Assembly: GCF_001465295.1 (NCBI RefSeq)
Contig: NZ_CP011035.1
Coordinates: forward strand, 210,001 to 242,000
DNA length: 32,000 nt
Direction of reading: 5' to 3'
Source: Pseudoalteromonas translucida KMM 520
GTDB taxonomy: Bacteria; Pseudomonadota; Gammaproteobacteria; Enterobacterales; Alteromonadaceae
The position numbers were made by a program, and so were the translations under genes. This document shows positions 1-25,224 of this stretch, piece by piece. Numbering within the stretch: position 1 is the first letter of the stretch; each line of letters starts with the position of its first letter. A model generated the notes under the pieces. The model was not told the DNA's origin and did no database searches. It was given only the letters and a program-made list of their open reading frames with translations.

Positions 1-51
1 CCTATGGCTGGTCTATCAATGCGCAGTGGAGAGGTGGTAACTCAAAAGTAA
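1..51 (+). CDS. 3' end of an ORF entering from upstream of the window (tail PMAGLSMRSGEVVTQK*); product unknown
   Basis: Frame 1 is open from base 1 to TAA at 49-51. The stop overlaps the next start (TAATG, 49-53), a translational-coupling arrangement. Too short to identify. Confidence 0.35.
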   Translation, partial: PMAGLSMRSGEVVTQK

Positions 52-785
52 TGAGCAGCGAAGTGGCAGAGCATTATTTGTTGTTGGAGCAATTACTACC
101 GCAATCTGTACCCAGTGATGTTAAACAGTCGGTACATATTAAAGCAGAGCAGGCGCTTAAACGTTATAATGGCCATATGCCTGAGTGGCTTTCAACCCTG
201 CCAAAACCGTCGTTAAAAGTGAATGTTGATACTCAGTTAGTTGAGCAAATTGAGCATGCGATTATGCATAAGCGTGCAGTGAGCGCTGAGCTTTATAGAG
301 TACTTTATGATGAGGCTCATTGGCTAAAATTTGCGGAGTTAAGTTTTTACAACTTAGTTGAGCAAGGCGGTGTGTTAATGGCTCAGTTTATGGTGGGAGA
401 GCTTCATGACAAGTGTTATCAAATGCCGGTTTACCGCATTCGCAATGTACACATTTTGCAAAAAACACGACGAGAGCCAAGCACTGAGCAATTAAAGTCG
501 TTACGTAGTGCGATTAACAAAGGCATGTCGCAAGAAGCGATCGAGTTAGTTGTAAAAGTACCTATTCATTCGGCGGTTAATCAAGGCTTTATTGAACTTG
601 GTGAGCTGATTAATAAACAACAGATTGATGATAAAAACGTATTACTTACCTATCAAACTATTGATACTGAACAACTAGTCGATGAGCTATTTAAATGTGC
701 CCATTGGCTTGAGGTTATAAAACCTGAAAAGTTGCGGCAAAGAATCACTACAAAGCTTAAAGCGGCCGCTAACATTTATAAATAA
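51..785 (+). CDS. Hypothetical 244-aa soluble protein, no family recognised
   Basis: Long ORF whose start is coupled to the upstream ORF. No signal peptide or TM segment seen. Two similar 'AHWL' segments (EAHWLKFAEL and CAHWLEVIKPE). Lies directly upstream of the FtsZ-like gene. Confidence 0.6.
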   Translation: MSSEVAEHYLLLEQLLPQSVPSDVKQSVHIKAEQALKRYNGHMPEWLSTLPKPSLKVNVDTQLVEQIEHAIMHKRAVSAELYRVLYDEAHWLKFAELSFYNLVEQGGVLMAQFMVGELHDKCYQMPVYRIRNVHILQKTRREPSTEQLKSLRSAINKGMSQEAIELVVKVPIHSAVNQGFIELGELINKQQIDDKNVLLTYQTIDTEQLVDELFKCAHWLEVIKPEKLRQRITTKLKAAANIYK

Positions 786-800
786 CTTTAACTAGTTTAG

Positions 801-821
801 GTGCGTCAAAAATTGACGCAC
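801..821 (+). terminator. Stem-loop between the 244-aa ORF and the FtsZ-like gene (possible attenuator or weak intrinsic terminator)
   Basis: Perfect inverted repeat GTGCGTCAA / TTGACGCAC (801-809 and 813-821) with a 3-nt loop, followed by CTGTTTGCT, which is only moderately U-rich. Confidence 0.4.
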
Positions 822-858
822 CTGTTTGCTATGCTCCTTTTAAAGTTAAGGAGTAGTT

Positions 859-1947
859 ATGTTTCAATTAATTCAGCAAAATGATGGTTTATCGATTGGT
901 GTATTTGGTATTGGTGGGTGTGGCTGTAATACTTTTAACAGTATTTTTGAACAACGCGAGTCTGAGCAGGCGCACTTGTTCAGCGTTAATACCGACAAAG
1001 TGGTACTTGAGCATACGCAAAGTGATGAAGCAGTACTTATAGGTGCAGAGCTAACTCATGGATATGGTGCGGGTGCCGACCCTAAAGTTGGGCTGCAAGC
1101 GGCAGAAGAGAGTAAAGATCAGCTTTTAACGCTTATTAATGGCTGCGATATAATACTGTGTGCAACAGGGTTGGGTGGTGGAACTGGGACTGGCGCTAGC
1201 CCGTATATTGCGCAACTTGCTATTGAGCAAGCCAAACCCATTATATTTGTTGCTACATTGCCATTTAGTAGTGAAGGGCAGTTTAGAAGCAATATAGCGC
1301 AAGCAGGTTTAAATGAGCTTAAAGAGCATGCTAATGCTGTTATTACTCTCCCAAATGATCAACTGATAGAAGTCCTTGGTAACGATATCGGCTTATTTGA
1401 TGCCTTCAAACATAGTAACCAAATACTCCATTCACTGATAAAGTCACTCATCGATATGCTTTGCTATCAAGGCTTAATAAACGTTGATTTAAATGACTTT
1501 GCTAAAATTATGGACTGCCAAGGTGATGCTGTACTTGGGGTAGGCAAATGTAATGAAGAAAGCGAGTTAACTGCTGCGCTTGATAGTGCACTTAATAATC
1601 CGCTGGTTAATCAAGTTGATATGTCATCAAGTACCGGCGTGATAATACAAGTGAACTGTAAAGATGAAATTTCACTAGGTAGTTATAACCTTATTACAGA
1701 TACAGTGCGCCAGCAGGTAAGCCCTAATGCGTTAGTTATTTGTGGTGTTTCAAAAATTGAAAACTTAGTAACCAATTATGAGCTACTGGTTATTGCTACG
1801 GGCGCGAGTTCAAAAATGATACTTGATGACACTAAAATTGAGTCAAGCTCTAAAGTAGTCGCCACTAAACCAAAAGCATCTGATATTTTTGATATTCCTG
1901 CTTTTATAAGAAATCAATCTGCACCACCTAGTAAAAGCTCTTTATAG
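859..1947 (+). CDS. FtsZ-family (tubulin-like) GTPase, divergent paralogue carrying the FtsZ conserved C-terminal peptide
   Basis: AGGAG sits 8 nt upstream of the ATG. Tubulin signature GGGTGTG (T4 loop) and T7-loop NVDLNDF (NxDxxD) are present. The C-terminal DIFDIPAFIRNQ matches the FtsZ CTP (DIPAFLR). The T1 loop reads GIGGCGCN instead of GVGGGGGN. No ftsA upstream and no lpxC downstream. Confidence 0.9.
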   Translation: MFQLIQQNDGLSIGVFGIGGCGCNTFNSIFEQRESEQAHLFSVNTDKVVLEHTQSDEAVLIGAELTHGYGAGADPKVGLQAAEESKDQLLTLINGCDIILCATGLGGGTGTGASPYIAQLAIEQAKPIIFVATLPFSSEGQFRSNIAQAGLNELKEHANAVITLPNDQLIEVLGNDIGLFDAFKHSNQILHSLIKSLIDMLCYQGLINVDLNDFAKIMDCQGDAVLGVGKCNEESELTAALDSALNNPLVNQVDMSSSTGVIIQVNCKDEISLGSYNLITDTVRQQVSPNALVICGVSKIENLVTNYELLVIATGASSKMILDDTKIESSSKVVATKPKASDIFDIPAFIRNQSAPPSKSSL

Positions 1948-1989: not shown

Positions 1990-3552
1990 CTACTCTAATA
2001 TTTGCAAAAGGCGGCTCTTTTTAAGCTTTTGGGTTTGCTGAACTATATTACTCCAGATAGTTGAATAAGCACTTGTTGTACTTTTTAACTTGGCAGCAAC
2101 CTTATTAAAACAATCTAATTTTAAAAATGATTTTTTAGCCGTTTTGTTTTTTAACTTAGCCTGTATTTTTACTTCTTTGAGTACTTCCTTCTCAAATAGG
2201 GAAAAGTTTTTATAAAGTGCCTTAATATCAGTGTTATATATTTTATTCGAGTGGTCATAATGTTTACTCATCGGATCGTGATTTGAAACAGAGTGATGAA
2301 GCATTTTTTTAGACTCAATTTCAGCAATTGTTGATGACCCAATTTTTTTAGTTAGCACTTCTTTCATATGTGACTTTAAGAAGCTGCGAAGTAGTGTTGG
2401 AAATGCTCCGGCTGAGCCTTTTATATTTATGTTATCTCGCGGGGCCGCTACCATGTCTTTTGGCGCATGATACTTAAGTGCTCGGTTTAAACTCTCTTTA
2501 CTGATGGGCTTTGAATCGTCTTTAACCTTGCAAAATAAGTAGGTGCGGTTTTTGTCTGGGTTTAATTTTAATTCTTGTTGTATCGCTTTTTTCATCTCGG
2601 GTGTGAGTTGTATTCTAAACTCTTTTTGGTTTTTCATTGCTCCGCGAGCGGTATGAGTTGTTTCAGGAAACGTTAAAAATTTAGGATTAGTTAAATCATC
2701 TATATACGATAGACGAAGGTTGCAAATATTTATGGGTCTTAGCCCAGTAAACATCATCAGTAGTACCGCATTTATTAATGTATTATTTTTAGCTGTTTTT
2801 AGGTTTATGTATAGCTGAGAAATTAGAGATATATCAGTATATGCCTTGCATGGAACAGGCTTCGCCGTTCGAGAATATATATAATTTTTATCTACTTCTA
2901 GGAATGGATTATCGCCATTATTATATTTATTTTTTGCGAACACCCACAGCTTTTTCATTTGCTCGCATAGCTTAGCCACATGCGGGCCACTTTTCTCTGT
3001 TAGTAATTGATCAAGCGTTGCTTCTATTATTTCAGGCGTAATAGTCTGAAATAACGTATTTTTACCAAATGCATTTTGAATTGCATTAAGGTAAGAGGTA
3101 TATGTTGTTACTGTGGTTTCAGCTAACTTGCTAGGGCTATATTTATTAATCGCCTGTAAGTTTTCTATTTGTTTACTCACTACAAATTCGAATGTGTAAT
3201 TAGAGGTGTTCTTTTTGTATATTTCGGCCGCTTTTAATTTTGCTGCTGAAAAACTCATATTATTAGAATCACCAATCTTTGTGTTTTTTATGCCATGTAC
3301 TTTTTTAAAATGAGTAAAAAATTTAATAATACCATCATGCTGGAATACAATTCTTATTTGATCTTTAAGCTGATATTTTGAAAGTCTTCTTCCTTTTTCC
3401 TGCGATAATATAATAGTCGCAAGACTGGCTAGCTCTTCCATTGACTCGTCATTGTATGGAGGCTTATTCGCATTAAATTCAGCCATGCAAAGGTCACGAC
3501 TGTTAATCGTGACCTCACATGGTTTTATTGAATTTAATACTGATGTTGCCAT
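1990..3552 (-). CDS. Tyrosine recombinase / phage-type (P4-like) integrase, 520 aa, with a Lys-rich C-terminal extension
   Basis: N-terminal arm-type segment (RLSKYQLKDQIRIVF...NTKIGD). Box I FTGLRPINI. Beta-hairpin Lys in GAMKNQKEF. Box II region GSAGAFPTLLRSF...LHHS...HYDHS. Paralogous to the neighbouring ORF. Confidence 0.8.
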   Translation of the reverse strand: MATSVLNSIKPCEVTINSRDLCMAEFNANKPPYNDESMEELASLATIILSQEKGRRLSKYQLKDQIRIVFQHDGIIKFFTHFKKVHGIKNTKIGDSNNMSFSAAKLKAAEIYKKNTSNYTFEFVVSKQIENLQAINKYSPSKLAETTVTTYTSYLNAIQNAFGKNTLFQTITPEIIEATLDQLLTEKSGPHVAKLCEQMKKLWVFAKNKYNNGDNPFLEVDKNYIYSRTAKPVPCKAYTDISLISQLYINLKTAKNNTLINAVLLMMFTGLRPINICNLRLSYIDDLTNPKFLTFPETTHTARGAMKNQKEFRIQLTPEMKKAIQQELKLNPDKNRTYLFCKVKDDSKPISKESLNRALKYHAPKDMVAAPRDNINIKGSAGAFPTLLRSFLKSHMKEVLTKKIGSSTIAEIESKKMLHHSVSNHDPMSKHYDHSNKIYNTDIKALYKNFSLFEKEVLKEVKIQAKLKNKTAKKSFLKLDCFNKVAAKLKSTTSAYSTIWSNIVQQTQKLKKSRLLQILE

Positions 3553-3675
3553 TAATATATAAGCCTTAAAAAAGTTAAAATCATCAAATAACTGATGAGG
3601 TATCGCTCTAATAAGGCAATGATATGAAATTATTTTTTTTTACAAAAACTTTGGTAAGTCGAAATTAAACTTTTT

Positions 3676-5457
3676 TTAATTATTTTTTGCTTTAGCTTCT
3701 TGGTCACTTAAATACCTCTCAACGACAGCTCTTCCTTCTTCGGTTAAGATTAAATCTTTTGCTACTCTACCTGTATCTCCTAATGGCTGGTTAATGAAGT
3801 GTACATAACTGCCTTTATGAACCAAATGAGCTTTAATCCTATCTCTCAGTGCTTTTTTTTCGTTATTTTCTTTTAGGTTTTTAGCTTGTTTACTTTGCAT
3901 ACCTGTGAGTCTGAGTTGTTGGCTTTCGAGTTCTTTGGCTCTTTTTAAAATACTGGCTTCATGAATTTTAAAAACATTAAATTTTAATTTTGTAGAGGTT
4001 CCAAATAACTCTTCAGACCTATCATAGTTAAGCCCATTCGGATCATCGTCTTTTCTTAGGTGATGAAGCGCTAGTCGGGTTAATTCTTCTGCATGCCTAA
4101 AATGGTAGCCATTATCAACCATAATCGCTTTTGTGTTGGATTTAAAAAAGCTTCGACACATTGTGCAAAAGGCTCCAGCAGATCCTTTCATTACAATGTT
4201 TCTTTGATCACCTTTTACTGCATCAACAGGAGAATAATCTTTTATAACCTTATCTAACGATCTTTTTGCAAATGGCTTCCTAAGATCCCGTGGCTGAAGA
4301 AATATATGAGTAGGATTACAGTTAGGAAGCGCATTTTCCATCCATGCTCTTTGTTCCAAAATAATCGCACGCATCGCTTTGGTTAATGGCAACTTGTATT
4401 CTTTTTGGTTTTTCATTTCGCCACGCACACCAACAACGGATGCTGGAAAAGTAATTAACGTAGGGAAATCGATACTATTGAGCCACCCCCATTTCATCTG
4501 CGGAATGTTGATCGGGCGTATACCTGTTAAAATCATAAATCGAGCAGCGTTCTTTTGATGTATATTAGGTGCTGATGCTAGGTTAATCCATAGTTCCACT
4601 ATCGAATCTAGATCGGTATACGCTTGGCAAGGTCTAGGGCTCTCTACACGGTCAGATACGTAAAAGTCGTCTATATCAGCTGCTGGGTTATTACCTGAGT
4701 TAAATTTGTTTTTGGCAAATCGCCATACTCTTCTAATTTGTGCAAAGAGTTCGATGGCTTGGTTATTGGATTCCGCCTGAATAATGCTATCAATAATTTT
4801 TTCTAACTCCCCAGCTGTAAGAGATTGAAACGCTCTCTTAAGCGGAAAATGATGCCTAAGCTTTTTTATTCTGCATTGATATGTTCTTAGCGATGAAGCT
4901 GCAAATTTAGTGGGTGCGGTGTTATGACGCTCTATTAAGCTTTGCTCATAAGCATCAAACACAGTTTTAATATTATGATTATTTAAAACGCCATATTTCA
5001 TTTGTTCAGTGAGCTTACGCGCTTTTGCTATTGTTAATTCAGGTGCTTCACCTAACTTGGTATTAGCTATGCCAGATGATTTAGGGAAAGCTGAGTAAAA
5101 AGATACTGTTCCAGATAGGGTAAATATAAGACGAAGATTGTGTTGTGCCTCATATTTCGATAATCGCTTCGTATCTTGCTTCTTAACCTCTTGTTTTGAT
5201 TTTTCTTTTTCCTCAAAAAAGATGATTTGAGAGGCCAAAATAACACAGCGATTTATGTGCTGCATAGAAAATGGCGATTTAAGTTGCTTCCATTCTAGTT
5301 TCGCTTTCGTGTATTGAGCTTTGGTAAGCGTTGATAGTGATTTTTTCACTTTGATTAAACCTATATAAATAAAGGCCTCACGGCGATTTTTATTGATTAA
5401 GATCAACAAAGCAACAGAGAAAGATAGGCATAATTCGCGGCTGTAATTTACACCCAA
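3676..5457 (-). CDS. Tyrosine recombinase / phage-type (P4-like) integrase, up to 593 aa; start uncertain
   Basis: Shares the architecture of 1990-3552: RLSKYEAQHNLRLIF...NTKLGE, LTGIRPINI, GEMKNQKEY, GSAGAFCTMCRSF...LHHLR...NYDRSE. The track start at 5457 is a TTG. A GTG at 5349 or an ATG at 5265 would give a protein closer to its paralogue's N-terminus. Confidence 0.8.
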   Translation of the reverse strand: MGVNYSRELCLSFSVALLILINKNRREAFIYIGLIKVKKSLSTLTKAQYTKAKLEWKQLKSPFSMQHINRCVILASQIIFFEEKEKSKQEVKKQDTKRLSKYEAQHNLRLIFTLSGTVSFYSAFPKSSGIANTKLGEAPELTIAKARKLTEQMKYGVLNNHNIKTVFDAYEQSLIERHNTAPTKFAASSLRTYQCRIKKLRHHFPLKRAFQSLTAGELEKIIDSIIQAESNNQAIELFAQIRRVWRFAKNKFNSGNNPAADIDDFYVSDRVESPRPCQAYTDLDSIVELWINLASAPNIHQKNAARFMILTGIRPINIPQMKWGWLNSIDFPTLITFPASVVGVRGEMKNQKEYKLPLTKAMRAIILEQRAWMENALPNCNPTHIFLQPRDLRKPFAKRSLDKVIKDYSPVDAVKGDQRNIVMKGSAGAFCTMCRSFFKSNTKAIMVDNGYHFRHAEELTRLALHHLRKDDDPNGLNYDRSEELFGTSTKLKFNVFKIHEASILKRAKELESQQLRLTGMQSKQAKNLKENNEKKALRDRIKAHLVHKGSYVHFINQPLGDTGRVAKDLILTEEGRAVVERYLSDQEAKAKNN

Positions 5458-5464
5458 AAATAAA

Positions 5465-5489
5465 AATTTGTGTTACTAATTTGTGTTAC
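5465..5489. repeat. Perfect 12-bp direct repeat AATTTGTGTTAC x2 (13-bp period)
   Basis: Copies at 5465-5476 and 5478-5489, just upstream of the 593-aa integrase ORF and at the edge of the AT-rich block. Confidence 0.85.
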
Positions 5490-5555
5490 GATTTAATGAA
5501 AAATAGCGGTTTTTTATTAAACTAGAACTGCACAAAAGTTAGCCTTTACACATCT

Positions 5556-5606: not shown

Positions 5607-5864
<258 letters not shown>

Positions 5865-10910: not shown

Positions 10911-11717
10911 TCATAAATCAGGGAAATGGCCATAGGCTTCATTTATTTGATAGTTTTGCTGACTGACCCAGGTAAAGTAATCTTTATTAGCTAATAAACT
11001 GGCAGCATCGTTGTCGATCATCACTATCGCGTTTTTATGCATTTGTAAAATTGACGCCGGGCAACTTGCCGAAAGTGGGCCGTTTACCATGTCATTTACC
11101 GCTTGTGCTTTATTTTTACCTGTGGCGATTAATAACACATACTTAGCGTCCATTATGGTAGCAATACCCATGGTCATCGCCATTTTTGGTTGTTGCTCAT
11201 CGTCTGAAAACATTCTGCTGTTGTCTGATACGGTTTGCTCAGTTAGCGATTTGATCCGGGTGCGAGATGCAAAGCTTGATGAGGGTTCATTAAAGCCAAT
11301 ATGGCCATTGCCGCCAATGCCTAAAAGTTGCAGATCTAAGCCTCCGAGCGCCGCTATTTGCTGCTCAAAATGTTCACCTTGTTTTCTAGGATCTTGTTTG
11401 GCGTTACAAGTTGGTAAATGGGTATTGTTTTTATCTATATCTATGTGATTGAACAGTTGGCTGTTCATAAAGTAACGGTAGCTATTACTATTATTTTCAT
11501 CGATATCGTAATACTCATCTAAATTAAATGTATTTACCTGAGCAAAACTAATATGCTTATTTTTATACATCGATACTAGCTGCTTATATAAATCAATAGG
11601 CGTGCTACCTGTAGCTAGGCCTATATTTGCATTGCTTTTTGCTAAAATTAACTTTTGTAGCAACGTTGCTGCATTTTCAGCAACAGCTTTTTTATCATCA
11701 AATATAAGTACTTGCAT
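10911..11717 (-). CDS. nagB: Glucosamine-6-phosphate deaminase
   Basis: 268 aa, colinear with E. coli NagB (GLATGSTP, FNLDEY, GIGGNGHIGFNEP, SRTRIK). Last gene of the nan operon. Confidence 0.95.
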   Translation of the reverse strand: MQVLIFDDKKAVAENAATLLQKLILAKSNANIGLATGSTPIDLYKQLVSMYKNKHISFAQVNTFNLDEYYDIDENNSNSYRYFMNSQLFNHIDIDKNNTHLPTCNAKQDPRKQGEHFEQQIAALGGLDLQLLGIGGNGHIGFNEPSSSFASRTRIKSLTEQTVSDNSRMFSDDEQQPKMAMTMGIATIMDAKYVLLIATGKNKAQAVNDMVNGPLSASCPASILQMHKNAIVMIDNDAASLLANKDYFTWVSQQNYQINEAYGHFPDL

Positions 11718-11718
11718 T

Positions 11719-12594
11719 TTACTTCTCTATTAATTGATTTTTAGCGTAGTGATGCACACCGATTAAATCGGCATCTGCACCCGATACCGGCTGTAACAAG
11801 GTTACTTGATAAATTGCCGGTGCTTGTTGAATTTTTTCAGCTACTTTATTAAAAAACAATGCTGACAAACCCACACTGCCTCCAATAACAACCATTTCAT
11901 TGCCAAATGTGGCTTTCATATTAAATATCAGCTCGGCCACGGCCGATGCGGCATTATCAATAATTTCGGCTACTTCAGGATGCTCAGCGTAGTTTGTAAA
12001 TACGTCTTTTGCATTGAGTGTTTTACCCAGTGCTTTGCTGGCGTGTTTAGCAATAGCAGTGCCTGAGGCAATTGACTCAACACAGTTTTTTCTGCCGCAG
12101 TGGCAGCTGTAGTTATGGTTTGATTGAATATGTACCGTGGTGTGGCCTAGGTGGGCACAAAACCCATCGGCGCAGGTGATTATTTGGTCGTTAAATACAA
12201 TGCCTGCACCCACTCCTGTTGATACGGTAATGTAAATAAAGTTTTTATATTTTACCTGCTCATTTACCGTGTATTCAGCCCAAGCGGCTGCAGAGGCATC
12301 GTTAATTATAGTGACGGGTAGGTTAGTTAGGCTTTCTAACTGTGCTTTTAATGGTAATTTACGACGCACAGATAAAAAATTCACAAATTCTGCGCTAACT
12401 TGGCCTGTGCAAGCAATATTAATTGCGCTGGCTTGAGGTACCCACTTTTCAATTACGGTATAAACGTATGCCGCTAAGTCATCAATATTAGTATGTATAA
12501 TAGAGTCAACTTTTAATGAATTAACGATTTGGTCATTATCAATAAGTGCGCAGGCTATTTTGGTGCCGCCAATATCAATGGCAATATTCATCAT
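11719..12594 (-). CDS. nanK: N-acetylmannosamine kinase (ROK family)
   Basis: 291 aa, the same length as E. coli NanK. Motifs IAIDIGGTKIA, NDASAAAWAE and ITVSTGVGAG, plus the ROK zinc motif CHCGRKNCVE. The start overlaps the nanE stop (TAATG). Confidence 0.9.
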   Translation of the reverse strand: MMNIAIDIGGTKIACALIDNDQIVNSLKVDSIIHTNIDDLAAYVYTVIEKWVPQASAINIACTGQVSAEFVNFLSVRRKLPLKAQLESLTNLPVTIINDASAAAWAEYTVNEQVKYKNFIYITVSTGVGAGIVFNDQIITCADGFCAHLGHTTVHIQSNHNYSCHCGRKNCVESIASGTAIAKHASKALGKTLNAKDVFTNYAEHPEVAEIIDNAASAVAELIFNMKATFGNEMVVIGGSVGLSALFFNKVAEKIQQAPAIYQVTLLQPVSGADADLIGVHHYAKNQLIEK

Positions 12595-13301
12595 TAAATA
12601 TCACTCTTTGCATTGTTAATACTTTGCACAAACCACCCAGTTATATGCTCAAGGCGGGTAATTGCCGAGCCAACAGTAACGCACAATGCACCGAGTTCAA
12701 TTGCTTTTGCAGCGCGCTCAGGCGAGTTGTAGCGCCCTTCGGCAATTACTTTTATACCAGCACTGACTAAGTCACTTACTAATTGATAGTCGGGTTCGTT
12801 AGGGGTTGTACTTAAATCTAAATAACCAGATAGCGTACTGCCAATAAAGGTACAGCCCGCGTCATGTAAAAACTTGCCGCCAGCAAGGTCAGCGCAGTCG
12901 GCCATAGCAATACAGCCGTGTTCGTGGATGGTGTTTAACAGAGTTAGCCTATCTACTGGGCGAGGTCTATCTGTGCCATCAAACGCGATAATAGTTGCGC
13001 CGGCTTCGGCCAGGCCAATAACGTCTTCAACAAAAGGGGTTATGCGCACCTCAGTATCAGTAAGGTCGCGTTTAACAATGCCTACAATAGGAATATTGCT
13101 TACTTTTGCGACCGCACGTACATTTTCAATGCCTTCAATTCTTAGTGCTTTTGCACCCCCAGCTACGGTTGCTAATGCCATAGCAACAATATGCTCAACT
13201 TTATCCATAGGACCATCGTCAAGAGGCTGGCATGATGCAATTAAGCTACTTTGCAAATGGTTTACTAAAAAACTCTCTAACTCTATATTTTTATTTGACA
13301 T
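12594..13301 (-). CDS. nanE: N-acetylmannosamine-6-phosphate 2-epimerase
   Basis: 235 aa. Strong colinear resemblance to E. coli NanE: LIASCQPLDDGPMD, IVGIVKRDL, AFDGTDRPRP, IAEGRYNSP, VTVGSAITRLEHI. Confidence 0.95.
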   Translation of the reverse strand: MSNKNIELESFLVNHLQSSLIASCQPLDDGPMDKVEHIVAMALATVAGGAKALRIEGIENVRAVAKVSNIPIVGIVKRDLTDTEVRITPFVEDVIGLAEAGATIIAFDGTDRPRPVDRLTLLNTIHEHGCIAMADCADLAGGKFLHDAGCTFIGSTLSGYLDLSTTPNEPDYQLVSDLVSAGIKVIAEGRYNSPERAAKAIELGALCVTVGSAITRLEHITGWFVQSINNAKSDI

Positions 13302-13320: not shown

Positions 13321-15759
13321 TTATTGGTTCATTGTATATAAGGTTAATTTTGAAAGATCTTTATTGTGTGCAGGGAATAATAAACTAACTAAGTAGCCAA
13401 CAATTAAGCAGGTTAAAATACCTATTGTTCCGTAAAGGTAGCCATTAGCCCAGCCATATTTCCATGCTGAAATCATTAAGCTCACCCCTGAGATTATACC
13501 TACTATAGCGCCTACAGAGTTAGCACGTTTGGTTAATGCGCCAAGTATAAATATGCCACCTAATGCACCCATAAACATACCAATTACTTTAAAATAAGCT
13601 TCCATTAGTGAGCGTATTTCAGGGTCGATAAATATTAATCCAACTAAGGTGCCTAATACGCCAGAAATAAAAGTAAGGATGCGCGCTAAGCTCATATAAG
13701 ACTTCTCAGATTTGGCTAAATTAAAAGGTCGTACAAAGTCGGTTAATACCGTAGTGGCAATAGAGTTCATGCTGGTTGAAACCGTTGACTGCGCTGCTGC
13801 AAAAATACCTGCAATAATGAGTCCGGCTAAACCCATTGGTAGTTCATTTGAGATAAACGTAGGGAAAATTTGATCAATTTGAATGGTTGGATCGAGTTTT
13901 TCAGGGTTAAGTTGGTAAAAAGCGTATAAGCCTGTACCAATACAGAAAAACAATAACGCGCCCGGTGCCGCTAATATGGCATTAGCCCAAATAGATTTAA
14001 CCGCTGAGGCAGGATCTTTGGTTACCATGTATCTTTGCACAACGGCTTGATCTGCAGTGTAGCTCGATAAATTTTGCCCAATACCACCCAGCACAATAAC
14101 CCAAATAGATAAGCTAGTAATACTCTCAAGGCTAAAGTCGTTATTAACTATGGTAAATTTATCGTCAGCAAAACCAATTTGTATAAAGCTATTAAAGCCA
14201 TCATCGAGGCCAGCAATAATTACAGCAAAACACACAACAGCGCCAATAAGTAATACTACGGTTTGAATAGTATCAGTCCAAATAACGGCTTCAACACCAC
14301 CCAGTGTGCAATATAATAAACAAAGCATTCCCATAATAAGCACGCTATCAGAGGCACTAAGAGGGGTTACCGCCGACAAAGCCAACGCGGTTAATGCCAT
14401 AACAATACCCATACGGCCAATATGAAATAAGGTGAATAAGCCACTGGCAAAAAGTCGTACCGGCATATTAAATCTTTTTGATAAAAACTCATATGCACTG
14501 GTTGCATCTAGCTGTCTAAAAAAGGGAATTGCTACATATACAGCAATAGGCGCTACTGCAATTATCATCCAAATACCAATAAGCAGTACCCAGTTAGTTT
14601 GATAAACAATGGCCGGAAGGGCGATGTAAGTTAACGAGCTTAACATAGTGGCATAAATAGAGCAGGCTGCAGCCCACCAAGGTATTGACTGCCCACCTCT
14701 AAAGTAATCGTTGGTGTTTTTATTTTTAAACATAAAATATAAACCAACCATGACCACAGAGAGTAAGTAAATCACTAAAACCAGCATGTTTTGCCAGCCA
14801 AAATCGCGGGCTGTATTACTAATTTCACCTTTAATTAAAACGGTATTGTTAGTATTTAACTCTGTTACTACTGCATAAGAGTGTTGCTGAGCCTGAGTTA
14901 TTTTATGAAAACGATAGTCTGACTTATTGTAATTAGACCACGCTTTAGTGATGGTATTGTATGACAAGGTTTTGCCACCTTGAGTCACTACCATAATATG
15001 AGATTGACCCAGAGGAGAGGCAAATACGAGCTTATCAATATCTACCAGCTCAGTGGGGTTACTACTTATTACGGTTAACCATGAATTTGTAGCTTCATCA
15101 AACTCGTGTAATAAAAGTTTAGAATTAGAGTTGCTGCTTTGCTCTGCGCCTTGTTGTGAAATAGCGTAAATGCGGTTTTCGTTGCCATCATTTTGCACCA
15201 CAAGTTCACTGTTAATAATGTTTAGATCTGTAAATAATGCTGCATTGAGTGGTGTCCACTGTTGCTGGTCATTATTTAGGGCTATTTTAAAAAAGTACCA
15301 CTGCTTATCAAAACCAGTAATGTACACGTTTTGCCCAAATACTTGCGCACTTACTTTACTAAACGAACGAGGTAAATTAGCTAACTGTTTTGAAACAATA
15401 TTTTGAGATTCATCATGCCATTCTAAAACATTAACACGTGTAGATTTAACCCCATTAACTAAGCCGCCTAGCACAATTGTTTTGTTATTGTGCTGCACTG
15501 TAATTGCTTGCGCTCTATTACCATCAATAGGTTTGAAGTTTAATACAGTACTTATTTCATGTGTTGCTAGGTCTAGCTTATTTAATTTGGCAAAGTCGGT
15601 ACTTGAAATAAACAAAGCGTCATTTGTTAAAAAATAGAAAGAATCTTTATTTATAGGTAGGTGGTTAGCGTTACTTTTAATAACGCTCCAATCAAGCTGT
15701 GTTTTAGCAAATGTATTGCATGATGTTAAAAGTAATAAAAAAATTATAATTATTCTCAT
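13321..15759 (-). CDS. Fusion protein: N-terminal periplasmic Kelch/NanM-like beta-propeller (~320 aa) plus a C-terminal sodium:solute symporter (SSS, SiaT-like sialic acid transporter)
   Basis: 812 aa. Signal peptide MRIIIIFLLLLTSCNTFA. Blade-like repeats (TIVLGGLVNG, NVYITGF, QQWTPL, NSWLTV, KAWSNY). From ~aa 325 a polytopic SSS core follows (NDYFRGGQSIPWW...). First gene of the nanE-nanK-nagB operon. The in-frame TAG 20 codons upstream leaves only this ATG as a start. Confidence 0.85.
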   Translation of the reverse strand: MRIIIIFLLLLTSCNTFAKTQLDWSVIKSNANHLPINKDSFYFLTNDALFISSTDFAKLNKLDLATHEISTVLNFKPIDGNRAQAITVQHNNKTIVLGGLVNGVKSTRVNVLEWHDESQNIVSKQLANLPRSFSKVSAQVFGQNVYITGFDKQWYFFKIALNNDQQQWTPLNAALFTDLNIINSELVVQNDGNENRIYAISQQGAEQSSNSNSKLLLHEFDEATNSWLTVISSNPTELVDIDKLVFASPLGQSHIMVVTQGGKTLSYNTITKAWSNYNKSDYRFHKITQAQQHSYAVVTELNTNNTVLIKGEISNTARDFGWQNMLVLVIYLLSVVMVGLYFMFKNKNTNDYFRGGQSIPWWAAACSIYATMLSSLTYIALPAIVYQTNWVLLIGIWMIIAVAPIAVYVAIPFFRQLDATSAYEFLSKRFNMPVRLFASGLFTLFHIGRMGIVMALTALALSAVTPLSASDSVLIMGMLCLLYCTLGGVEAVIWTDTIQTVVLLIGAVVCFAVIIAGLDDGFNSFIQIGFADDKFTIVNNDFSLESITSLSIWVIVLGGIGQNLSSYTADQAVVQRYMVTKDPASAVKSIWANAILAAPGALLFFCIGTGLYAFYQLNPEKLDPTIQIDQIFPTFISNELPMGLAGLIIAGIFAAAQSTVSTSMNSIATTVLTDFVRPFNLAKSEKSYMSLARILTFISGVLGTLVGLIFIDPEIRSLMEAYFKVIGMFMGALGGIFILGALTKRANSVGAIVGIISGVSLMISAWKYGWANGYLYGTIGILTCLIVGYLVSLLFPAHNKDLSKLTLYTMNQ

Positions 15760-15905: not shown

Positions 15906-16610
15906 TTAGTCGTAATAATTATCAAAAACATAATCTATATGGGCAGAAAGCTTTGCGTCAGCTCCCTCTACATCACCATTTTTTATACACTCAAAAATAG
16001 CAACATGGTCGTTATAACTTTGCTTATTTAATTCCACGGTATTAACGCGCTCGGGGCGAGCATCAATTAACCAGTCCATTAACGCTTGGTGTACAGCTAA
16101 AAATATTGGATTACCTGGAATAGAGGCAATCACCCGGTGGAAGTAAATATCTGTTTTTCTAAACTGGGTGTCGCTATTAATAGATTTGCTATTTAACTCA
16201 AGCGCTTCACCTAGTTCTTTTATTTGGCTAGGTGTTGCAGATGATGCGGCGTAGCGCACTAAGCTAGATTCAAAAAATCGTCTTAACTGGTCAAAATATT
16301 TTAAACCATTAGGCTGGGTAAGAAAATCCTTTGACATACCCGACAACTCAGAAATAATGGTGTCGGCTGAAGGGCGTGTTACCCTAGTTCTTTCACCGCT
16401 ACTTATTTTAACCAAGCCTTTACGTGCTAGTGCCGCTAAAGCATCCCTGATCGAAGGTCTACCGACGCCAAATGCAGCCATAAGATCTCGCTCAGAAGGC
16501 AGTGCATCACCTTCTGAAATTTCACCTTGACGGATCATGCGTTCGAGCTCTTCTTCAACCGTTTCTGACAACTTTTTGCGTTCGACAGGGCGCGTAATTT
16601 TTAATGACAT
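15906..16610 (-). CDS. nanR: GntR/FadR-family transcriptional regulator NanR (sialic acid regulon repressor)
   Basis: 234 aa. Extended colinear resemblance to E. coli NanR: [95 protein letters not shown]. Confidence 0.93.
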
Positions 16611-18752: not shown

Positions 18753-19658
18753 CTACGCTGGTTGGTGATCCATAAAGCCTGCGGCTTGCATTTTAGCAAC
18801 TACGTCTTTTTTCTCATCGTCGTTAAGCGCACGAATTGGTAAGCGTGGGTTACCTACATCAATACCATGTAGTTGCATTGCTGCTTTACCCGCTGCTACG
18901 CCGCCATATTGAACCAGAGTACGAATTAATGCGATAACTTTATCCATTAACGCAGTTACGGTTTCTTGGTCACCTTTGTTGAACGCTTCGATAATTTCTA
19001 AATAAAGTGGAGCTGCGTAGTTGTACGTACTACCTACTGCGCCAATAGCACCTACTGCTAGGCCACCTGGAAGAAATTCGTCAACACCAAAAGGAATATC
19101 GAATTTACCACCACAAGCACGCTTACAGCGTTGAAATTCGTAAAGATCACCATGGTTAAACTTAATACCTGCAAGGTTAGGAATAACCTTGTCAGCTTTA
19201 ATTAAAAACTGCTCCATATCAAACATCACACCCGACATACCTGAGTGGTAGTAGTAAAATGCTTTTGATGGTGCGGCAGCGGCAACCGTTGCACAGTAAT
19301 GCACTAAATCGTCAACTGAGCCAGGCTTAAAGAAACACGGTGCAATAATAGAGGTAGCAAAAATATCAAGCGTTTCTGCGTGCTTGGTTAATTCAAGGCT
19401 GTCGGCTATTGATAATGCGCCAGTATGCACGGTAATACTTAGTTTACCTTGAGCTGCTGTAACCCAACGTTCAGCAATCGCTTTGCGCTCAGCAACCGAG
19501 CAGTTAAGGCCCTCGCCTGTAGTACCACAAATATAAACGCCTTTAACGCCTTGCTTAATTAGTAGCTCAGCAAGTTGGTCAATAACTGGTAAGTTAACAT
19601 CACCATTTTTGTCAAACGGGGTATGAGGGGCTGCGATCAGTCCAGTAAGTTTATTCAT
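18753..19658 (-). CDS. nanA: N-acetylneuraminate lyase (DapA/NAL family)
   Basis: 301 aa. Motifs GTTGEG, FYYYH, Schiff-base Lys context GIKFNHGD, FGVDE and GAVGSTYNY. Located in the nan operon. Confidence 0.9.
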   Translation of the reverse strand: MNKLTGLIAAPHTPFDKNGDVNLPVIDQLAELLIKQGVKGVYICGTTGEGLNCSVAERKAIAERWVTAAQGKLSITVHTGALSIADSLELTKHAETLDIFATSIIAPCFFKPGSVDDLVHYCATVAAAAPSKAFYYYHSGMSGVMFDMEQFLIKADKVIPNLAGIKFNHGDLYEFQRCKRACGGKFDIPFGVDEFLPGGLAVGAIGAVGSTYNYAAPLYLEIIEAFNKGDQETVTALMDKVIALIRTLVQYGGVAAGKAAMQLHGIDVGNPRLPIRALNDDEKKDVVAKMQAAGFMDHQPA

Positions 19659-19676: not shown

Positions 19677-20810
19677 TTAAAATATTGCTTTGCCGCCAAT
19701 CCATGTGTTTAACACACGAGGCGACGAATTTGTTGTTGAAAGTAAAGTTAAGTCGGCATTGGCGCCAATGCTTAACTGTCCACGAGAGCCCTCTATTCCT
19801 AAAAACTCAGCTGGGTATAAACTAGCCATATTGAGGGCGTCGGTTAAGGAAATGTCTAACATGTGTGTTGCGTTATTCACCGCGGTGATCATATTTAGTG
19901 CTGAGCCCGCTAATTGGCCGCTATTACTAGTTAATTTGTCGCCAACTAAGTTAATGTCATGGCCGTCAAAATGCAGTTGTGTTTGCTCGCTGCCTATTGT
20001 CGACATTGAGTCGGTAACTAGCATCATTTTACGAGCGGCTTTTGCTCTATAAGCCAGTTTGGCTGTACTTGGGTGTACATGGTGGCCATCTAAAATAATG
20101 CCACACCAGCTTTGCTCATCAAGTAATGCGGCTCCCACCATATTTGGCGCGCGCGACTCAAGTGCCGACATAGCATTAAATAAATGGGTAAAACCTGTTG
20201 CGCCAGCAGCTAGTGCGGCTTGTGCTTGCTCAAAACTTGCGTTTGAGTGACCTAAACAAACATGCACACCGTGATCTACTAATATTTTAATTGTTTCGCA
20301 GCTGACATTTTCAGGGGCTAATGTGACTATTTTTATGCCTAAATCGTCACGACAATAAATATCTAATTCTTGCTGGCTTAAACCGCGAATTTGTTGACTA
20401 CTGTGAATACCTTTTTTAGGCTCGCTAATATGTGGGCCTTCAAAATGTACCCCTAAAATACCGGGAGTGTGCTGCGCTATAGCGGTACTTATTAGGTTGG
20501 CAGTTTGTTCTATTTTATTTAAATTGCTGGTGATTAGCGTAGGCAGCAGGCTGCTAGTACCATACTTAGCATGCGCTGTGCTCATTGCAGTTAAGGTTTG
20601 TAAATTAGTATTTTGATTAAGTAAACAACCTCCACCACCATTAACTTGCGTATCAATAAATCCAGCAGTTAATAAGCCACTAACTTTAGTTTCAATGGCG
20701 CCTTTTACAGTATCAAAAGCAATAATTTTGCCATCTTTAATACTAATAGGGTGGTTAGAGTGTAGTGTTTTGCCATCAAATAGATGATCGGCTATTAAAG
20801 TGGTGATCAT
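19677..20810 (-). CDS. nagA: N-acetylglucosamine-6-phosphate deacetylase
   Basis: 377 aa amidohydrolase. Motifs GFIDTQVNGGGG, HFEGP, LGHSNA, THLFNAM and ILDGHHV are typical of NagA. Confidence 0.92.
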   Translation of the reverse strand: MITTLIADHLFDGKTLHSNHPISIKDGKIIAFDTVKGAIETKVSGLLTAGFIDTQVNGGGGCLLNQNTNLQTLTAMSTAHAKYGTSSLLPTLITSNLNKIEQTANLISTAIAQHTPGILGVHFEGPHISEPKKGIHSSQQIRGLSQQELDIYCRDDLGIKIVTLAPENVSCETIKILVDHGVHVCLGHSNASFEQAQAALAAGATGFTHLFNAMSALESRAPNMVGAALLDEQSWCGIILDGHHVHPSTAKLAYRAKAARKMMLVTDSMSTIGSEQTQLHFDGHDINLVGDKLTSNSGQLAGSALNMITAVNNATHMLDISLTDALNMASLYPAEFLGIEGSRGQLSIGANADLTLLSTTNSSPRVLNTWIGGKAIF

Positions 20811-24081: not shown

Positions 24082-25224
24082 TTACGCGTCGTTATTTTGT
24101 AAACTAATGCGCGTAAATGAAATAGCACTATAGTTATCGCGTTCAAACATTACGCCTATTTCGTTATCGCTTAACTGGCAAATAGAAGAGTAGCCAAATG
24201 AGCCACTATAAACACATGCTATGTGTTGCCAGCTTGTAGCGTCATCCAGGCTTATTTTTAGCGTGCCTTGAATACGTTGAGACTGATGTTCTGGGCCACA
24301 ATATAATAGTCCACTGTGCTTAGCGTCGTGTTGTAAGCTAATAATACTGCCCTGACATTCGGGCTCGGTTAAATCGGGCGTGTCTTGCAGTGCAGTCCAA
24401 CTAATACCGCCATTTTCACTAAAGGCAGTTTTACGCAGGTGATTACCATGATAACTGCGGGCATTAAGTAGTACCCGACCATCAGCAAGCTCGGCCATTT
24501 GTGTTTCATTAGCGTGCTCAGCTATTGCAGCAGGGGCAACCTCACCGTATTGCCATTGGTGGCCACCATCGTCACTATACACAGCGTATACTTTCATATT
24601 ATCCCAAGGGCCTTGGGTAAATGGCATTACAATACGGTTTTTATAACTCCCGGTACGCAGTTGAATACCTATGCCCGGACCACCAGCGTAGCAGGTAACC
24701 TCGGTTGGGCGTTTAACTTGGCGGGTAATATCTACCCGTGGTGACCAATTGAGTCCGCCATCGCTGCTGCGTTGTACAAAGGTACGGCAAATTCGCCCTT
24801 GGTAGCCTGTCTCTACCGCGCCTTCGTGAACATTAGATGGAAAGTTTTGCCCTGCATGAGATATCCACGCTGCTGGGTTTTCAACTTGTTCGGGCGTGGT
24901 ATATGGATACTCTTGGTACATTAATACTATATCGCCTGAGCTAGCATCAATTACAACCAAAGGATTATTTAAGGCATTTTCGCCAGCATCGGCTACCAGA
25001 ATTTGCTCGCTCCAGCTTGTGCCGTTATCTTGGCTGGTTTTTAGTACGATTTTATTGTGAGCATGGTCTGACAATATCGCACGTGCTTCGCAAAATGCGA
25101 GTAGTTTTCCCTCTGGCATAGGCAATAATGCCGGAATACGATAACTACCAAAGCCATCTGTTTCGGCCTCAAAAATATTGCTGATCACTGTGGTATTTGT
25201 CAGTGAAGGTTGCACAGTACTCAT
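24082..25224 (-). CDS. Exo-alpha-sialidase (small, single-domain six-bladed propeller; no signal peptide)
   Basis: 380 aa. The YRIPALL motif is the FRIP equivalent. Five Asp-boxes: SQDNGTSW, SSDGGLNW, SDDGGHQW, SENGGISW, LDDATSW. GAGGAG lies 6 nt upstream of the ATG and an in-frame TAA is the codon before it, so the N-terminus MSTVQPSLTNTT... is firm and non-hydrophobic. Confidence 0.92.
   Translation of the reverse strand: MSTVQPSLTNTTVISNIFEAETDGFGSYRIPALLPMPEGKLLAFCEARAILSDHAHNKIVLKTSQDNGTSWSEQILVADAGENALNNPLVVIDASSGDIVLMYQEYPYTTPEQVENPAAWISHAGQNFPSNVHEGAVETGYQGRICRTFVQRSSDGGLNWSPRVDITRQVKRPTEVTCYAGGPGIGIQLRTGSYKNRIVMPFTQGPWDNMKVYAVYSDDGGHQWQYGEVAPAAIAEHANETQMAELADGRVLLNARSYHGNHLRKTAFSENGGISWTALQDTPDLTEPECQGSIISLQHDAKHSGLLYCGPEHQSQRIQGTLKISLDDATSWQHIACVYSGSFGYSSICQLSDNEIGVMFERDNYSAISFTRISLQNNDA

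Follow-up and report, generated by a model that had tools for sequence, protein, structure and literature searches.

What is a gene for an FtsZ-family protein doing outside the division and cell wall (dcw) cluster, directly behind the gene of a putative sensor-type regulator? The question is raised by the first two kilobases of a 32,000-nucleotide (nt) stretch of Pseudoalteromonas translucida KMM 520 (contig NZ_CP011035.1, positions 210,001 to 242,000 of the forward strand), hereafter the window, in which positions are counted from its first letter. A first-pass annotation had seen here a second, possibly horizontally acquired FtsZ of 362 amino acids (aa), together with two translationally coupled open reading frames (ORFs), the larger one encoding a possible 244-aa filament partner, a hairpin and two convergent integrase genes. 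In the present analysis the protein, here termed FtsZ2, is placed as an accessory FtsZ paralogue, and the gene in front of it is identified as that of a probable WYL-type transcription factor resembling DriD. With the predicted operator between them, the two genes would form a two-gene regulatory module that acts on division, a reading to which we assign a probability of about 0.55. The features that it draws on are the following.

3..785, + strand: probable DriD-like wHTH-3HB-WYL-WCX regulator, 3' 261 codons of a 324-aa gene (open frame, orthologue alignment, profiles)
802..820: palindrome TGCGTCA-N5-TGACGCA with the core GCGTC-N7-GACGC, predicted operator of the regulator (co-occurrence, conservation)
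830..835, + strand: -10-like hexamer TATGCT, 9 nt 3' of the operator, a presumed -10 element
832..855, + strand: second small hairpin, in which CTCCTT pairs with the ftsZ2 Shine-Dalgarno sequence AAGGAG at 849-854 (folding prediction)
859..1947, + strand: ftsZ2, full-length FtsZ paralogue of 362 aa (ORF call, Pfam/NCBIfam profiles, fold match)
907..930, + strand: T1 loop GIGGCGCN of FtsZ2, residues 17-24
1174..1194, + strand: T4 loop (G-box) GGGTGTG, residues 106-112
1480..1500, + strand: T7 loop NVDLNDF, residues 208-214
1882..1917, + strand: C-terminal peptide DIFDIPAFIRNQ (DIPAF tail), residues 342-353

The FtsZ2 protein

FtsZ2 is a real, full-length FtsZ-family protein, and the hallmarks that the first-pass annotation had read in the ORF (GGGTGTG, NVDLNDF and the tail) all lie where it had placed them. 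The Pfam search that it had suggested returned both domains above cut-off, namely Tubulin (PF00091, 136 bits, cut-off 33) and FtsZ_C (PF12327, 53.5 bits, cut-off 27), and the NCBIfam ftsZ equivalog TIGR00065 was not reached (276.3 bits, cut-off 295.2). The FtsZ of E. coli/Klebsiella (about 40% identity over residues 2-317) and the archaeal FtsZ of M. jannaschii were nearly equal in phmmer (~213 bits each), the closest proteins (85-96% identical) came from Pseudoalteromonas, and an exact-sequence look-up of the 362-aa protein found no record. The short linker (~22-25 aa between core and tail) and the moderate similarity to E. coli (~40% identity) were thus correctly recognized at first sight. 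The AlphaFold2 (AF2) model, built from 17 clade sequences, had a mean predicted local distance difference test (pLDDT) score of 76.5; values above 70 covered the greater part of the core, residues 13-318, and residues 320-362 were disordered. Foldseek against the PDB placed the FtsZ of E. coli, B. subtilis and M. jannaschii on top (E ~1e-37), with target-normalised TM-scores of 0.86-0.94 on solved FtsZ structures and a root-mean-square deviation of ~2 Å. A tubulin of the TubZ/PhuZ type was considered and rejected, given that the top matches in structure as well as in sequence are FtsZ throughout and that the phage collection and the viral contigs yielded no close homologue.

The invariant residues of the T1-T7 loops are all present in 21 clade members, and N208, D210 and D213 of the T7 loop (N-x-D-x-x-D) do not vary within the clade; the only canonical invariants lost are F99 (replaced by I/L), D158 (N/H/Q) and F210 (L/I/K), and V213, which is conserved in 71% of other FtsZs, is replaced by F. 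The T1 loop had been described as carrying two Gly-to-Cys changes against a near-invariant GGGGGN. The loop GIGGCGCN is indeed there, and GGCGCN is present in 115/116 of the best relatives covering the N-terminus, but the alleged near-invariance did not hold: among 148 sequences, each standing for one 50%-identity cluster of the nearest FtsZ clusters, position 21 was occupied by A 66 times, by G 61 times, by C 13 times and by S 4 times, and position 23 by G 73 times and by C 45 times. Judged by these counts, Cys21 is a mark of the clade and Cys23 is common among FtsZ proteins generally. The tail DIFDIPAFIRNQ aligned with DYLDIPAFLRKQ of E. coli, and the pattern D-I-P-x-[FY]-x-R is kept in 114/116 full-length relatives. 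The retained residues predict GTP binding, GTPase activity and polymerisation, and a tail of this kind should dock FtsA/ZipA. A third cysteine, C267 (nt 1657-1659), belongs to the QVNC strand in the C-terminal domain and is shared by 17/17 aligned clade members; E. coli FtsZ has ITAG at the equivalent place by our reading of the alignment.

The ratio of nonsynonymous to synonymous substitution rates (dN/dS) of ftsZ2 is 0.05-0.07, indicative of strong purifying selection; on this low ratio, together with the retained invariant residues, a degenerating copy was rejected. Cys21 lies on the nucleotide face and F210/V213 lie beside the T7 loop on the opposite face, so that both halves of the longitudinal interface are altered, an arrangement which possibly insulates FtsZ2 from the housekeeping FtsZ.

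The FtsZ2 clade and its paralogue status

The first-pass annotation had proposed a phylogenetic placement. In a neighbour-joining tree that combined 24 sequences of the clade and its sister group with 68 further representatives, the FtsZ2 core clade was monophyletic in 60/60 bootstraps, was joined by its sister group (P0246-8) in 55/60, and stood apart from the E. coli-type group. In the library clustered at 50% identity, about nine cluster representatives exceeded 258 bits, followed by a fall to a ~200-bit plateau of ordinary FtsZs. The named members belong to Pseudoalteromonas, Colwellia/Cognaticolwellia, Thalassotalea, Moritella and Agarivorans. One clade member (Colwellia, locus L013; L-numbers denote the loci compared here) was found among the listed matches of a profile scan of genome contigs, and the remainder were unrelated, largely archaeal FtsZs. 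No close homologue of FtsZ2 was detected in the phage collection, viral contigs or PHROGs, and PADLOC-DB 2.0 gave 0 matches.

The non-housekeeping context held up as well, since neither ftsA nor lpxC was found near ftsZ2 in the window, and dcw context was absent from the window and from 13 related loci. In PLSDB, ftsZ2 was located on six Pseudoalteromonas 'plasmids' of 680-900 kb, which represent the second chromosome, as they also carry ndk, rlmN and rodZ. For P. piratica OCN003, FtsZ2 is WP_040135160/AIY66711 (on CP009889), while the housekeeping ftsZ used in multilocus sequence analysis (MLSA) is WP_038639463 (PMC5690655 Table 3); FtsZ2 is therefore a paralogue there and presumably in the window as well. 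The MLSA ftsZ primers encode VMSAMGTAMMG and DYLDIPAFLRKQ, neither of which fits FtsZ2, and the 418-aa FtsZ of P. luteoviolacea (PMC6913975) falls, at 50% identity, into one cluster together with 40 further FtsZ sequences. Taken together, an accessory, non-dcw paralogue with an intact docking peptide is supported.

The adjoining probable WYL-type regulator

The two coupled ORFs reported upstream of ftsZ2 (1-51 and 51-785) turned out to be a single gene cut by the window edge, with '1-51' an out-of-frame artefact inside it. The frame is unbroken back to base 3 of the window, and the orthologue on a metagenomic Pseudoalteromonas contig (L001) is one 324-aa gene, which shares 88% identity with the window product over residues 81-323 and whose residues 65-80 run on into the first 48 nt of the window. 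The edge thus removes ~63 N-terminal codons, which would encode the wHTH domain, and the start lies upstream. Nor does the 244-aa product lack a recognisable family, as had been stated: Pfam WCX (PF25583, cut-off 23.9) matched the window fragment with 24.3 bits and the orthologues of L012 and L011 with 29.6 and 30.4 bits, and the PADLOC WYL and HTH-WYL profiles matched the regulator with E-values of 1.7e-11 and 5.6e-7, the HTH-WYL profiles covering residues 18-75 of the orthologue. Pfam WYL gave no match on the regulator, and RefSeq names its orthologues 'WYL domain-containing protein' or 'YafY family'.

Searched against the PDB, neither the regulator sequence by itself nor a profile of low depth gave a match. 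With a profile of eight FtsZ2-partner proteins (25-82% identical to each other), only DriD was significant (7U02, 7TZV, 8TP8 and 9PFQ; E 5.5e-4 to 2e-3; identifiers confirmed in PMC10853764 and PMC9186387), with its WCX region aligned to the profile, and the next match was PafBC (E 0.75). The only confidently modelled part of the orthologue comprises residues 1-70 (pLDDT 61-89), folded as helices and a beta-hairpin. R39, Q42, R43 and a G-x-F-G-L motif are invariant, the dN/dS is ~0.08, and regulator orthologues adjoin ftsZ2 down to 42-50% FtsZ2 identity, the sister clade included. What had been taken for a possible filament partner is, in short, the incomplete product of a gene for a probable DriD-like WYL transcription factor.

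Compared with strain HL-AS1 (L009 12948-15089), ftsZ2 showed a synonymous divergence (dS) of 0.39 with 96% aa identity and the adjacent regulator gene a dS of 1.0, the L001 and HL-AS1 regulator orthologues being 82% identical in aa; this contrast indicates a recombination breakpoint between both genes.

Predicted operator, putative promoter and hairpins

The palindrome at 802-820 lies within an extended palindrome or hairpin stem at 798-824 and occurs once in the 32-kb window (0.05 matches expected by chance). Its arms are invariant and its loop is variable across loci. It stands 37-51 nt 5' of the ftsZ2 ATG in 9/9 distinct loci with an adjacent WYL gene, including Thalassotalea (L011) and L214 (regulator downstream, convergent) and the sister-clade locus L213, and it is absent before ftsZ2 in 4/4 loci without a WYL gene (P. 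piratica, Moritella, Agarivorans and one Colwellia), with four mismatches allowed. In L011, L213 and L214, where the WYL gene is transcribed separately, a second copy of the form RCGWC-N7-GWCGY is located upstream of the regulator gene, at a distance of ~45 nt (7 nt in L011); one further site was found in L214, and no other matches in these loci. Of the 120 matches listed by a scan of metagenomes for the operator, three were WYL-ftsZ2 loci (L136, L137 and L194; guanine-cytosine (GC) content <=0.40), and the remaining ones, on higher-GC contigs without FtsZ2/WYL match, were taken as chance.

As RNA, the palindrome would fold into a hairpin of -30.7 kcal/mol (z = -6), so the hairpin of the first-pass annotation is real and very stable, although it is better explained as the operator of the regulator. 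A pure terminator was rejected for this element, the same motif being found before ftsZ2 without an upstream WYL gene and also before WYL genes; where the two genes stand in tandem, as in Pseudoalteromonas, it may also end transcripts that read through from the regulator gene.

Four columns of the TATGCT hexamer (A132, T133, C135 and T136 of an alignment of six loci) are conserved. No -35 hexamer was found at the proper spacing to it, and no sigma-70 promoter was predicted upstream of ftsZ2. Judged by these letters, an operator followed by TATGCT without a -35 element is the layout of an activator-dependent promoter. The pairing at 832-855 survives one-sided changes in L010 and, in read-through transcripts, may make the ribosome-binding site inaccessible. 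If transcription starts 3' of TATGCT, only read-through RNA would form this hairpin, and ftsZ2 could thus stay untranslated unless its own promoter fires. No Rfam family or tRNA was found in 1-6000/1-8000.

Proposed function and alternative explanations

Starting from the observed gene identities, clade, conservation and operator/regulator co-occurrence, we propose that the DriD-like factor, as a dimer, binds the palindrome at 802-820, which occupies the -35 place before TATGCT, and thereby controls ftsZ2 transcription; control of ftsZ2 through this site is probable, and we infer activation rather than repression. By analogy, the regulator would be switched on by single-stranded DNA (ssDNA) arising from DNA damage or phage replication, and we put even odds on a cue of this kind (ssDNA, damage or phage), as for DriD, DdaA, PafBC and CapW/BrxR. 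FtsZ2, catalytically complete and predicted to be polymerisation-competent, would then dock through its tail to tethers or regulators shared with the housekeeping FtsZ (FtsA, ZipA and others) and transiently block or re-programme the Z-ring, either by competing for tethers or by building its own filaments. Known WYL activators drive division inhibitors after damage (DriD acting on didA, PMC9186387; DdaA on aciT, PMC13010146), and division inhibition as the net effect of FtsZ2 is put forward only tentatively on that model. In a more specific version, ssDNA would activate the DriD-like factor, FtsZ2 would self-assemble apart from FtsZ by virtue of its co-varied longitudinal interface, which has Cys21/Cys23 of T1 on one face and NVD-L-N-D-F, replacing NVD-F-A-D-V, around T7 on the other, and its tail would seize FtsA/ZipA in a reversible checkpoint. 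The complete chain seems unlikely. Redox control of GTP binding by the Cys-x-Cys of the T1 loop could be imagined as well.

Several points weigh against a damage-responsive division module. The module is known here from sequence alone, and a coexisting housekeeping ftsZ is evidenced in P. piratica OCN003, not in the source genome. The DriD likeness of the regulator is weak (E ~1e-3) and confined to the C-terminal 115 residues, and its AF2 model (pLDDT 45, from 31 near-identical sequences) is unusable, which leaves the WYL fold to the profile matches. WYL regulators can be repressors, as CapW and BrxR are, and the position of the site (~-40 to -22 of the presumed start) would suit a repressor too, while the very stable RNA hairpin could terminate the upstream gene in Pseudoalteromonas. 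The four clade members without regulator and operator imply that FtsZ2 is able to work without either, and inhibition is not the obvious role for an FtsZ that is fully active and has its catalytic residues intact.

FtsZ2 might instead be a constitutive or environmentally tuned accessory FtsZ that co-assembles or substitutes in normal division, with the WYL protein only setting its level; it could serve as a cold- or pressure-adapted Z-ring subunit of marine Alteromonadales that are psychrophilic or piezophilic, or divide labour in the manner of archaeal and plastid FtsZ1/FtsZ2. Such a role would accord with the full catalytic set, the C-terminal peptide and the strong purifying selection, with a clade confined to Pseudoalteromonas, Colwellia, Thalassotalea, Moritella and Agarivorans, many of which are cold- or deep-sea-adapted, with the SPOR/FtsN-like septal protein encoded upstream in P. 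piratica, and with the four loci that lack the WYL regulator. We hold it to be unlikely, since a dedicated sensor-type regulator and its operator are conserved across deep divergence, the lack of a predicted sigma-70 promoter before ftsZ2 argues for conditional expression, and Cys21, F210L and V213F would favour self-matching filaments over unrestricted mixing with FtsZ. An anti-phage module, in which a CapW/BrxR-like WYL repressor frees ftsZ2 on infection and FtsZ2 arrests division abortively, or serves as a decoy for FtsZ inhibitors of phage origin or as a substitute resistant to them, draws on the variable flanks rich in defence cargo (DarT, restriction-modification, IetA-like AAA, two GmrSD, McrBC, ring nuclease, HipA and cREC-SIR2), on the integrases close by in the window, Agarivorans and L012, and on the sensing of ssDNA by WYL repressors of defence systems as well, as cited in PMC13010146. 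It is about as unlikely, in view of the absent PADLOC match of FtsZ2, of a phage collection and viral contigs that yielded no close homologue, and of native GC; WYL-ftsZ2-yfhL is moreover a syntenic core next to which defence genes vary, as would a conserved anchor beside an integration hotspot, and the nearest solved regulator is the damage activator DriD, not CapW/BrxR.

Location on the 680-900 kb second replicon of Pseudoalteromonas could suggest that FtsZ2 is a TubZ-like cytomotor for the segregation or maintenance of that chromosome. We consider this very improbable, because ftsZ2 also resides on a 4.6-Mb contig in Moritella and a 3.0-Mb one in another organism (single-chromosome hosts), the FtsZ_C domain and the divisome-docking peptide make the protein FtsZ-type, and its neighbour at the locus is a WYL regulator, with no TubR-like or centromere partner there. 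Scarcely credible, finally, is a filament of FtsZ2 with a 244-aa structural partner, coupled to a small ORF on a recently acquired islet with integrases: the genes are adjacent on the same strand and the integrases lie alongside, but what was read as a '244-aa' protein makes up the C-terminal 80% of the 324-aa WYL regulator, the small ORF proved artefactual, and the integrases are a low-GC lineage-specific insertion.

Genomic context and mobility

The right-hand neighbours of ftsZ2 in the window are listed below.

1990..3552, - strand: tyrosine recombinase/integrase 1, 520 aa (Pfam Phage_integrase 32 bits; PHROG phrog_1, E 7e-21)
3676..5457, - strand: tyrosine recombinase/integrase 2, 593 aa (Phage_integrase 26.0 bits, cut-off 27.1; PHROG integrase, E 2e-17)
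5610..5864, + strand: yfhL-type 4Fe-4S ferredoxin, conserved right-hand neighbour of ftsZ2 (Pfam Fer4)

On the second chromosome of Pseudoalteromonas, the order WYL-ftsZ2-(variable)-yfhL is syntenic and both flanks vary; RefSeq annotates a 'YfhL family 4Fe-4S dicluster ferredoxin' at the matching position in L009 and L010. The two convergent genes next to ftsZ2 do encode tyrosine recombinases, as first annotated, but they do not belong to the unit. They are mutual paralogues (32% identical) whose Phage_integrase matches are both partial (profile positions 10-117 of 172), integrase 2 also having a weak Arm-DNA-bind_3 match, with a GC content of 0.31-0.35 against ~0.40. The pair is present in HL-AS1 and absent at the same position in P. 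donghaensis and other strains, as seen in L005 and L010; it forms a low-GC insert of 3.6 kb with no other cargo (1990-5490) and is unrelated in sequence to the integrase adjoining FtsZ2 of Agarivorans. Judged by this distribution, the integrases are a lineage-specific insertion and not part of the module. Neither att-like direct repeats around the pair nor a displaced ftsZ2 3' end was found in the window, and a tandem AATTTGTGTTAC x2 lies at 5465-5490, immediately upstream of integrase 2. The neighbourhood is conserved in its WYL-ftsZ2-yfhL order, and of the second, possibly horizontally acquired FtsZ initially suspected the accessory paralogue remains: the conserved order and native GC do not support a recent horizontal acquisition.

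On the upstream flank, L009 has a HipA toxin-antitoxin, L010 has McrBC together with a ring nuclease, L005 has two GmrSD genes, and L001 has DarT, a type I restriction-modification system and an IetA-like AAA protein; downstream flanks carry cREC-SIR2 (L001 and L137) or the two integrases (window and HL-AS1). In L001 (6067-8958), a 673-aa double-AAA protein with IetA/TRIP13-like PADLOC matches is followed by a 255-aa protein without known family. A 42-codon remnant, MLDDTTNESSSKVVATKPKASDIFDIPAFIRNQSALPSKSSL, at 194-322 of L137 (Ga0207907_101117) is nearly identical to the C-terminus of FtsZ2 in the window; it sits downstream of an inserted cREC_REC gene, and the intact ftsZ2 of that contig has a different linker and tail, which indicates that cassettes are exchanged by crossovers within the ftsZ2 3' end.

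Directly upstream of FtsZ2 in P. piratica (L003 9366-9917), the WYL gene is replaced by that of a 183-aa SPOR-domain FtsN-like protein (Pfam SPOR, E 2e-4; TIGR02223 ftsN, E 2e-6, below cut-off), which is, going by these profile matches, a second, independent link of the FtsZ2 clade to the septum. In Agarivorans (L007 5059-6252), a defence-like 397-aa Response_reg + PNP_UDP_1 protein is encoded immediately upstream of FtsZ2.

Farther right, 6570-27909 of the window is occupied by a large sialic-acid utilisation locus, which also holds two TonB-dependent receptors and a DUF4862 gene besides the following.

10911-11717: nagB
11719-12594: nanK
12594-13301: nanE
13321-15759 and 25285-27909: two genes in which, unusually, an additional N-terminal domain (of Kelch type in the second) is joined to a sodium:solute symporter
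15906-16610: nanR
18753-19658: nanA-like lyase
19677-20810: nagA-like amidohydrolase
24082-25224: BNR sialidase

Implications

RefSeq already labels both genes, as 'cell division protein FtsZ' and 'WYL domain-containing protein'. No description of the clade, the WYL-ftsZ2 pairing or the operator was found by full-text searches of the literature, and the conserved pairing of FtsZ2 with its regulator appears to be undescribed. To our knowledge, FtsZ paralogues with a full docking tail are rare in bacteria, and we know of none with its own sensor-type regulator. If the proposed module is real, it would add a third, mechanistically different way of stopping division under DNA trouble beside SulA and DidA/AciT, with a cytoskeletal polymer as effector and not a small inhibitor; if the complete checkpoint chain holds too, FtsZ2 would be the first tubulin-family protein that a WYL circuit sensing nucleic acids employs as its inducible output. 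Tests of the module are straightforward: it comprises two genes plus a single 19-bp operator and occurs in genera that can be cultured, namely Pseudoalteromonas, Colwellia and Moritella, and the natural interface variants Cys21, F210L and V213F offer a handle on how FtsZ paralogues stay insulated. In these genera, the RefSeq name 'cell division protein FtsZ' for FtsZ2 can mislead MLSA, essential-gene and dcw analyses.

Comparison with known systems

With the housekeeping FtsZ of E. coli/Klebsiella, FtsZ2 shares the two-domain fold (target-normalised TM-score 0.92-0.94), the GTP-binding loops, the N-x-D-x-x-D of T7, a disordered linker and the D-I-P-A-F-x-R peptide. It differs in an identity of only about 35-40%, its separate clade, the missing dcw cluster, a score below the equivalog cut-off, a linker of ~23 aa, Cys21, the replacement of F99, D158, F210 and V213, and the dedicated regulator and operator in front. 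Archaeal and plastid FtsZ1/FtsZ2 are likewise two full-length paralogues with distinct roles, both of them constitutive parts of the ring, whereas FtsZ2 of the present clade is apparently conditional, taxonomically narrow and regulator-linked; those duplications are not ancestral to it, as it forms a separate clade in the tree. The FtsZ paralogues of Hyphomicrobiales (e.g., Agrobacterium FtsZ1) are extra copies of the GTPase domain beside the essential FtsZ, often truncated, for which a role in tuning or inhibiting division has been proposed (bioRxiv 10.1101/2025.09.29.679267). The gammaproteobacterial FtsZ2 clade, by contrast, consists of full-length proteins with the docking peptide retained and a sensor-regulator of its own.

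Among WYL regulators, CapW and BrxR are ssDNA-responsive WYL-WCX repressors of CBASS and BREX, found in defence islands. The Pseudoalteromonas locus resembles these in its position between variable defence cassettes and departs from them in that CapW/BrxR gave no significant match in the PDB profile search, the target is no known defence protein, and the operator of the tandem genes precedes the target gene and not the regulator. The closer parallels are DriD acting on didA in Caulobacter crescentus and DdaA acting on aciT in Acinetobacter, both of them WYL activators of SOS-independent damage responses. DriD has 327 aa in the order wHTH-3HB-WYL-WCX, recognizes ATACGAC-N7-GTCGTAT (PMC13004042) and binds its own promoter too (PMC13004042, PMC9186387). 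The regulator described here, of ~325 aa and with apparently the same domain layout, has DriD as its best PDB match; its predicted operator consists of 5-bp half-sites (A/G)CG(A/T)C with 7-bp spacing over a missing -35 element, with autoregulatory copies before the regulator gene, and the predicted output gene would act on division. Sequence similarity to DriD is weak, and ssDNA binding and activation are suggested by analogy with it. Unlike in DriD/DdaA, the regulon in the loci examined is apparently just the pair, and the place of a small membrane inhibitor as output is taken by an entire FtsZ paralogue; what appears to be new is the combination of an FtsZ paralogue with a DriD-type circuit.

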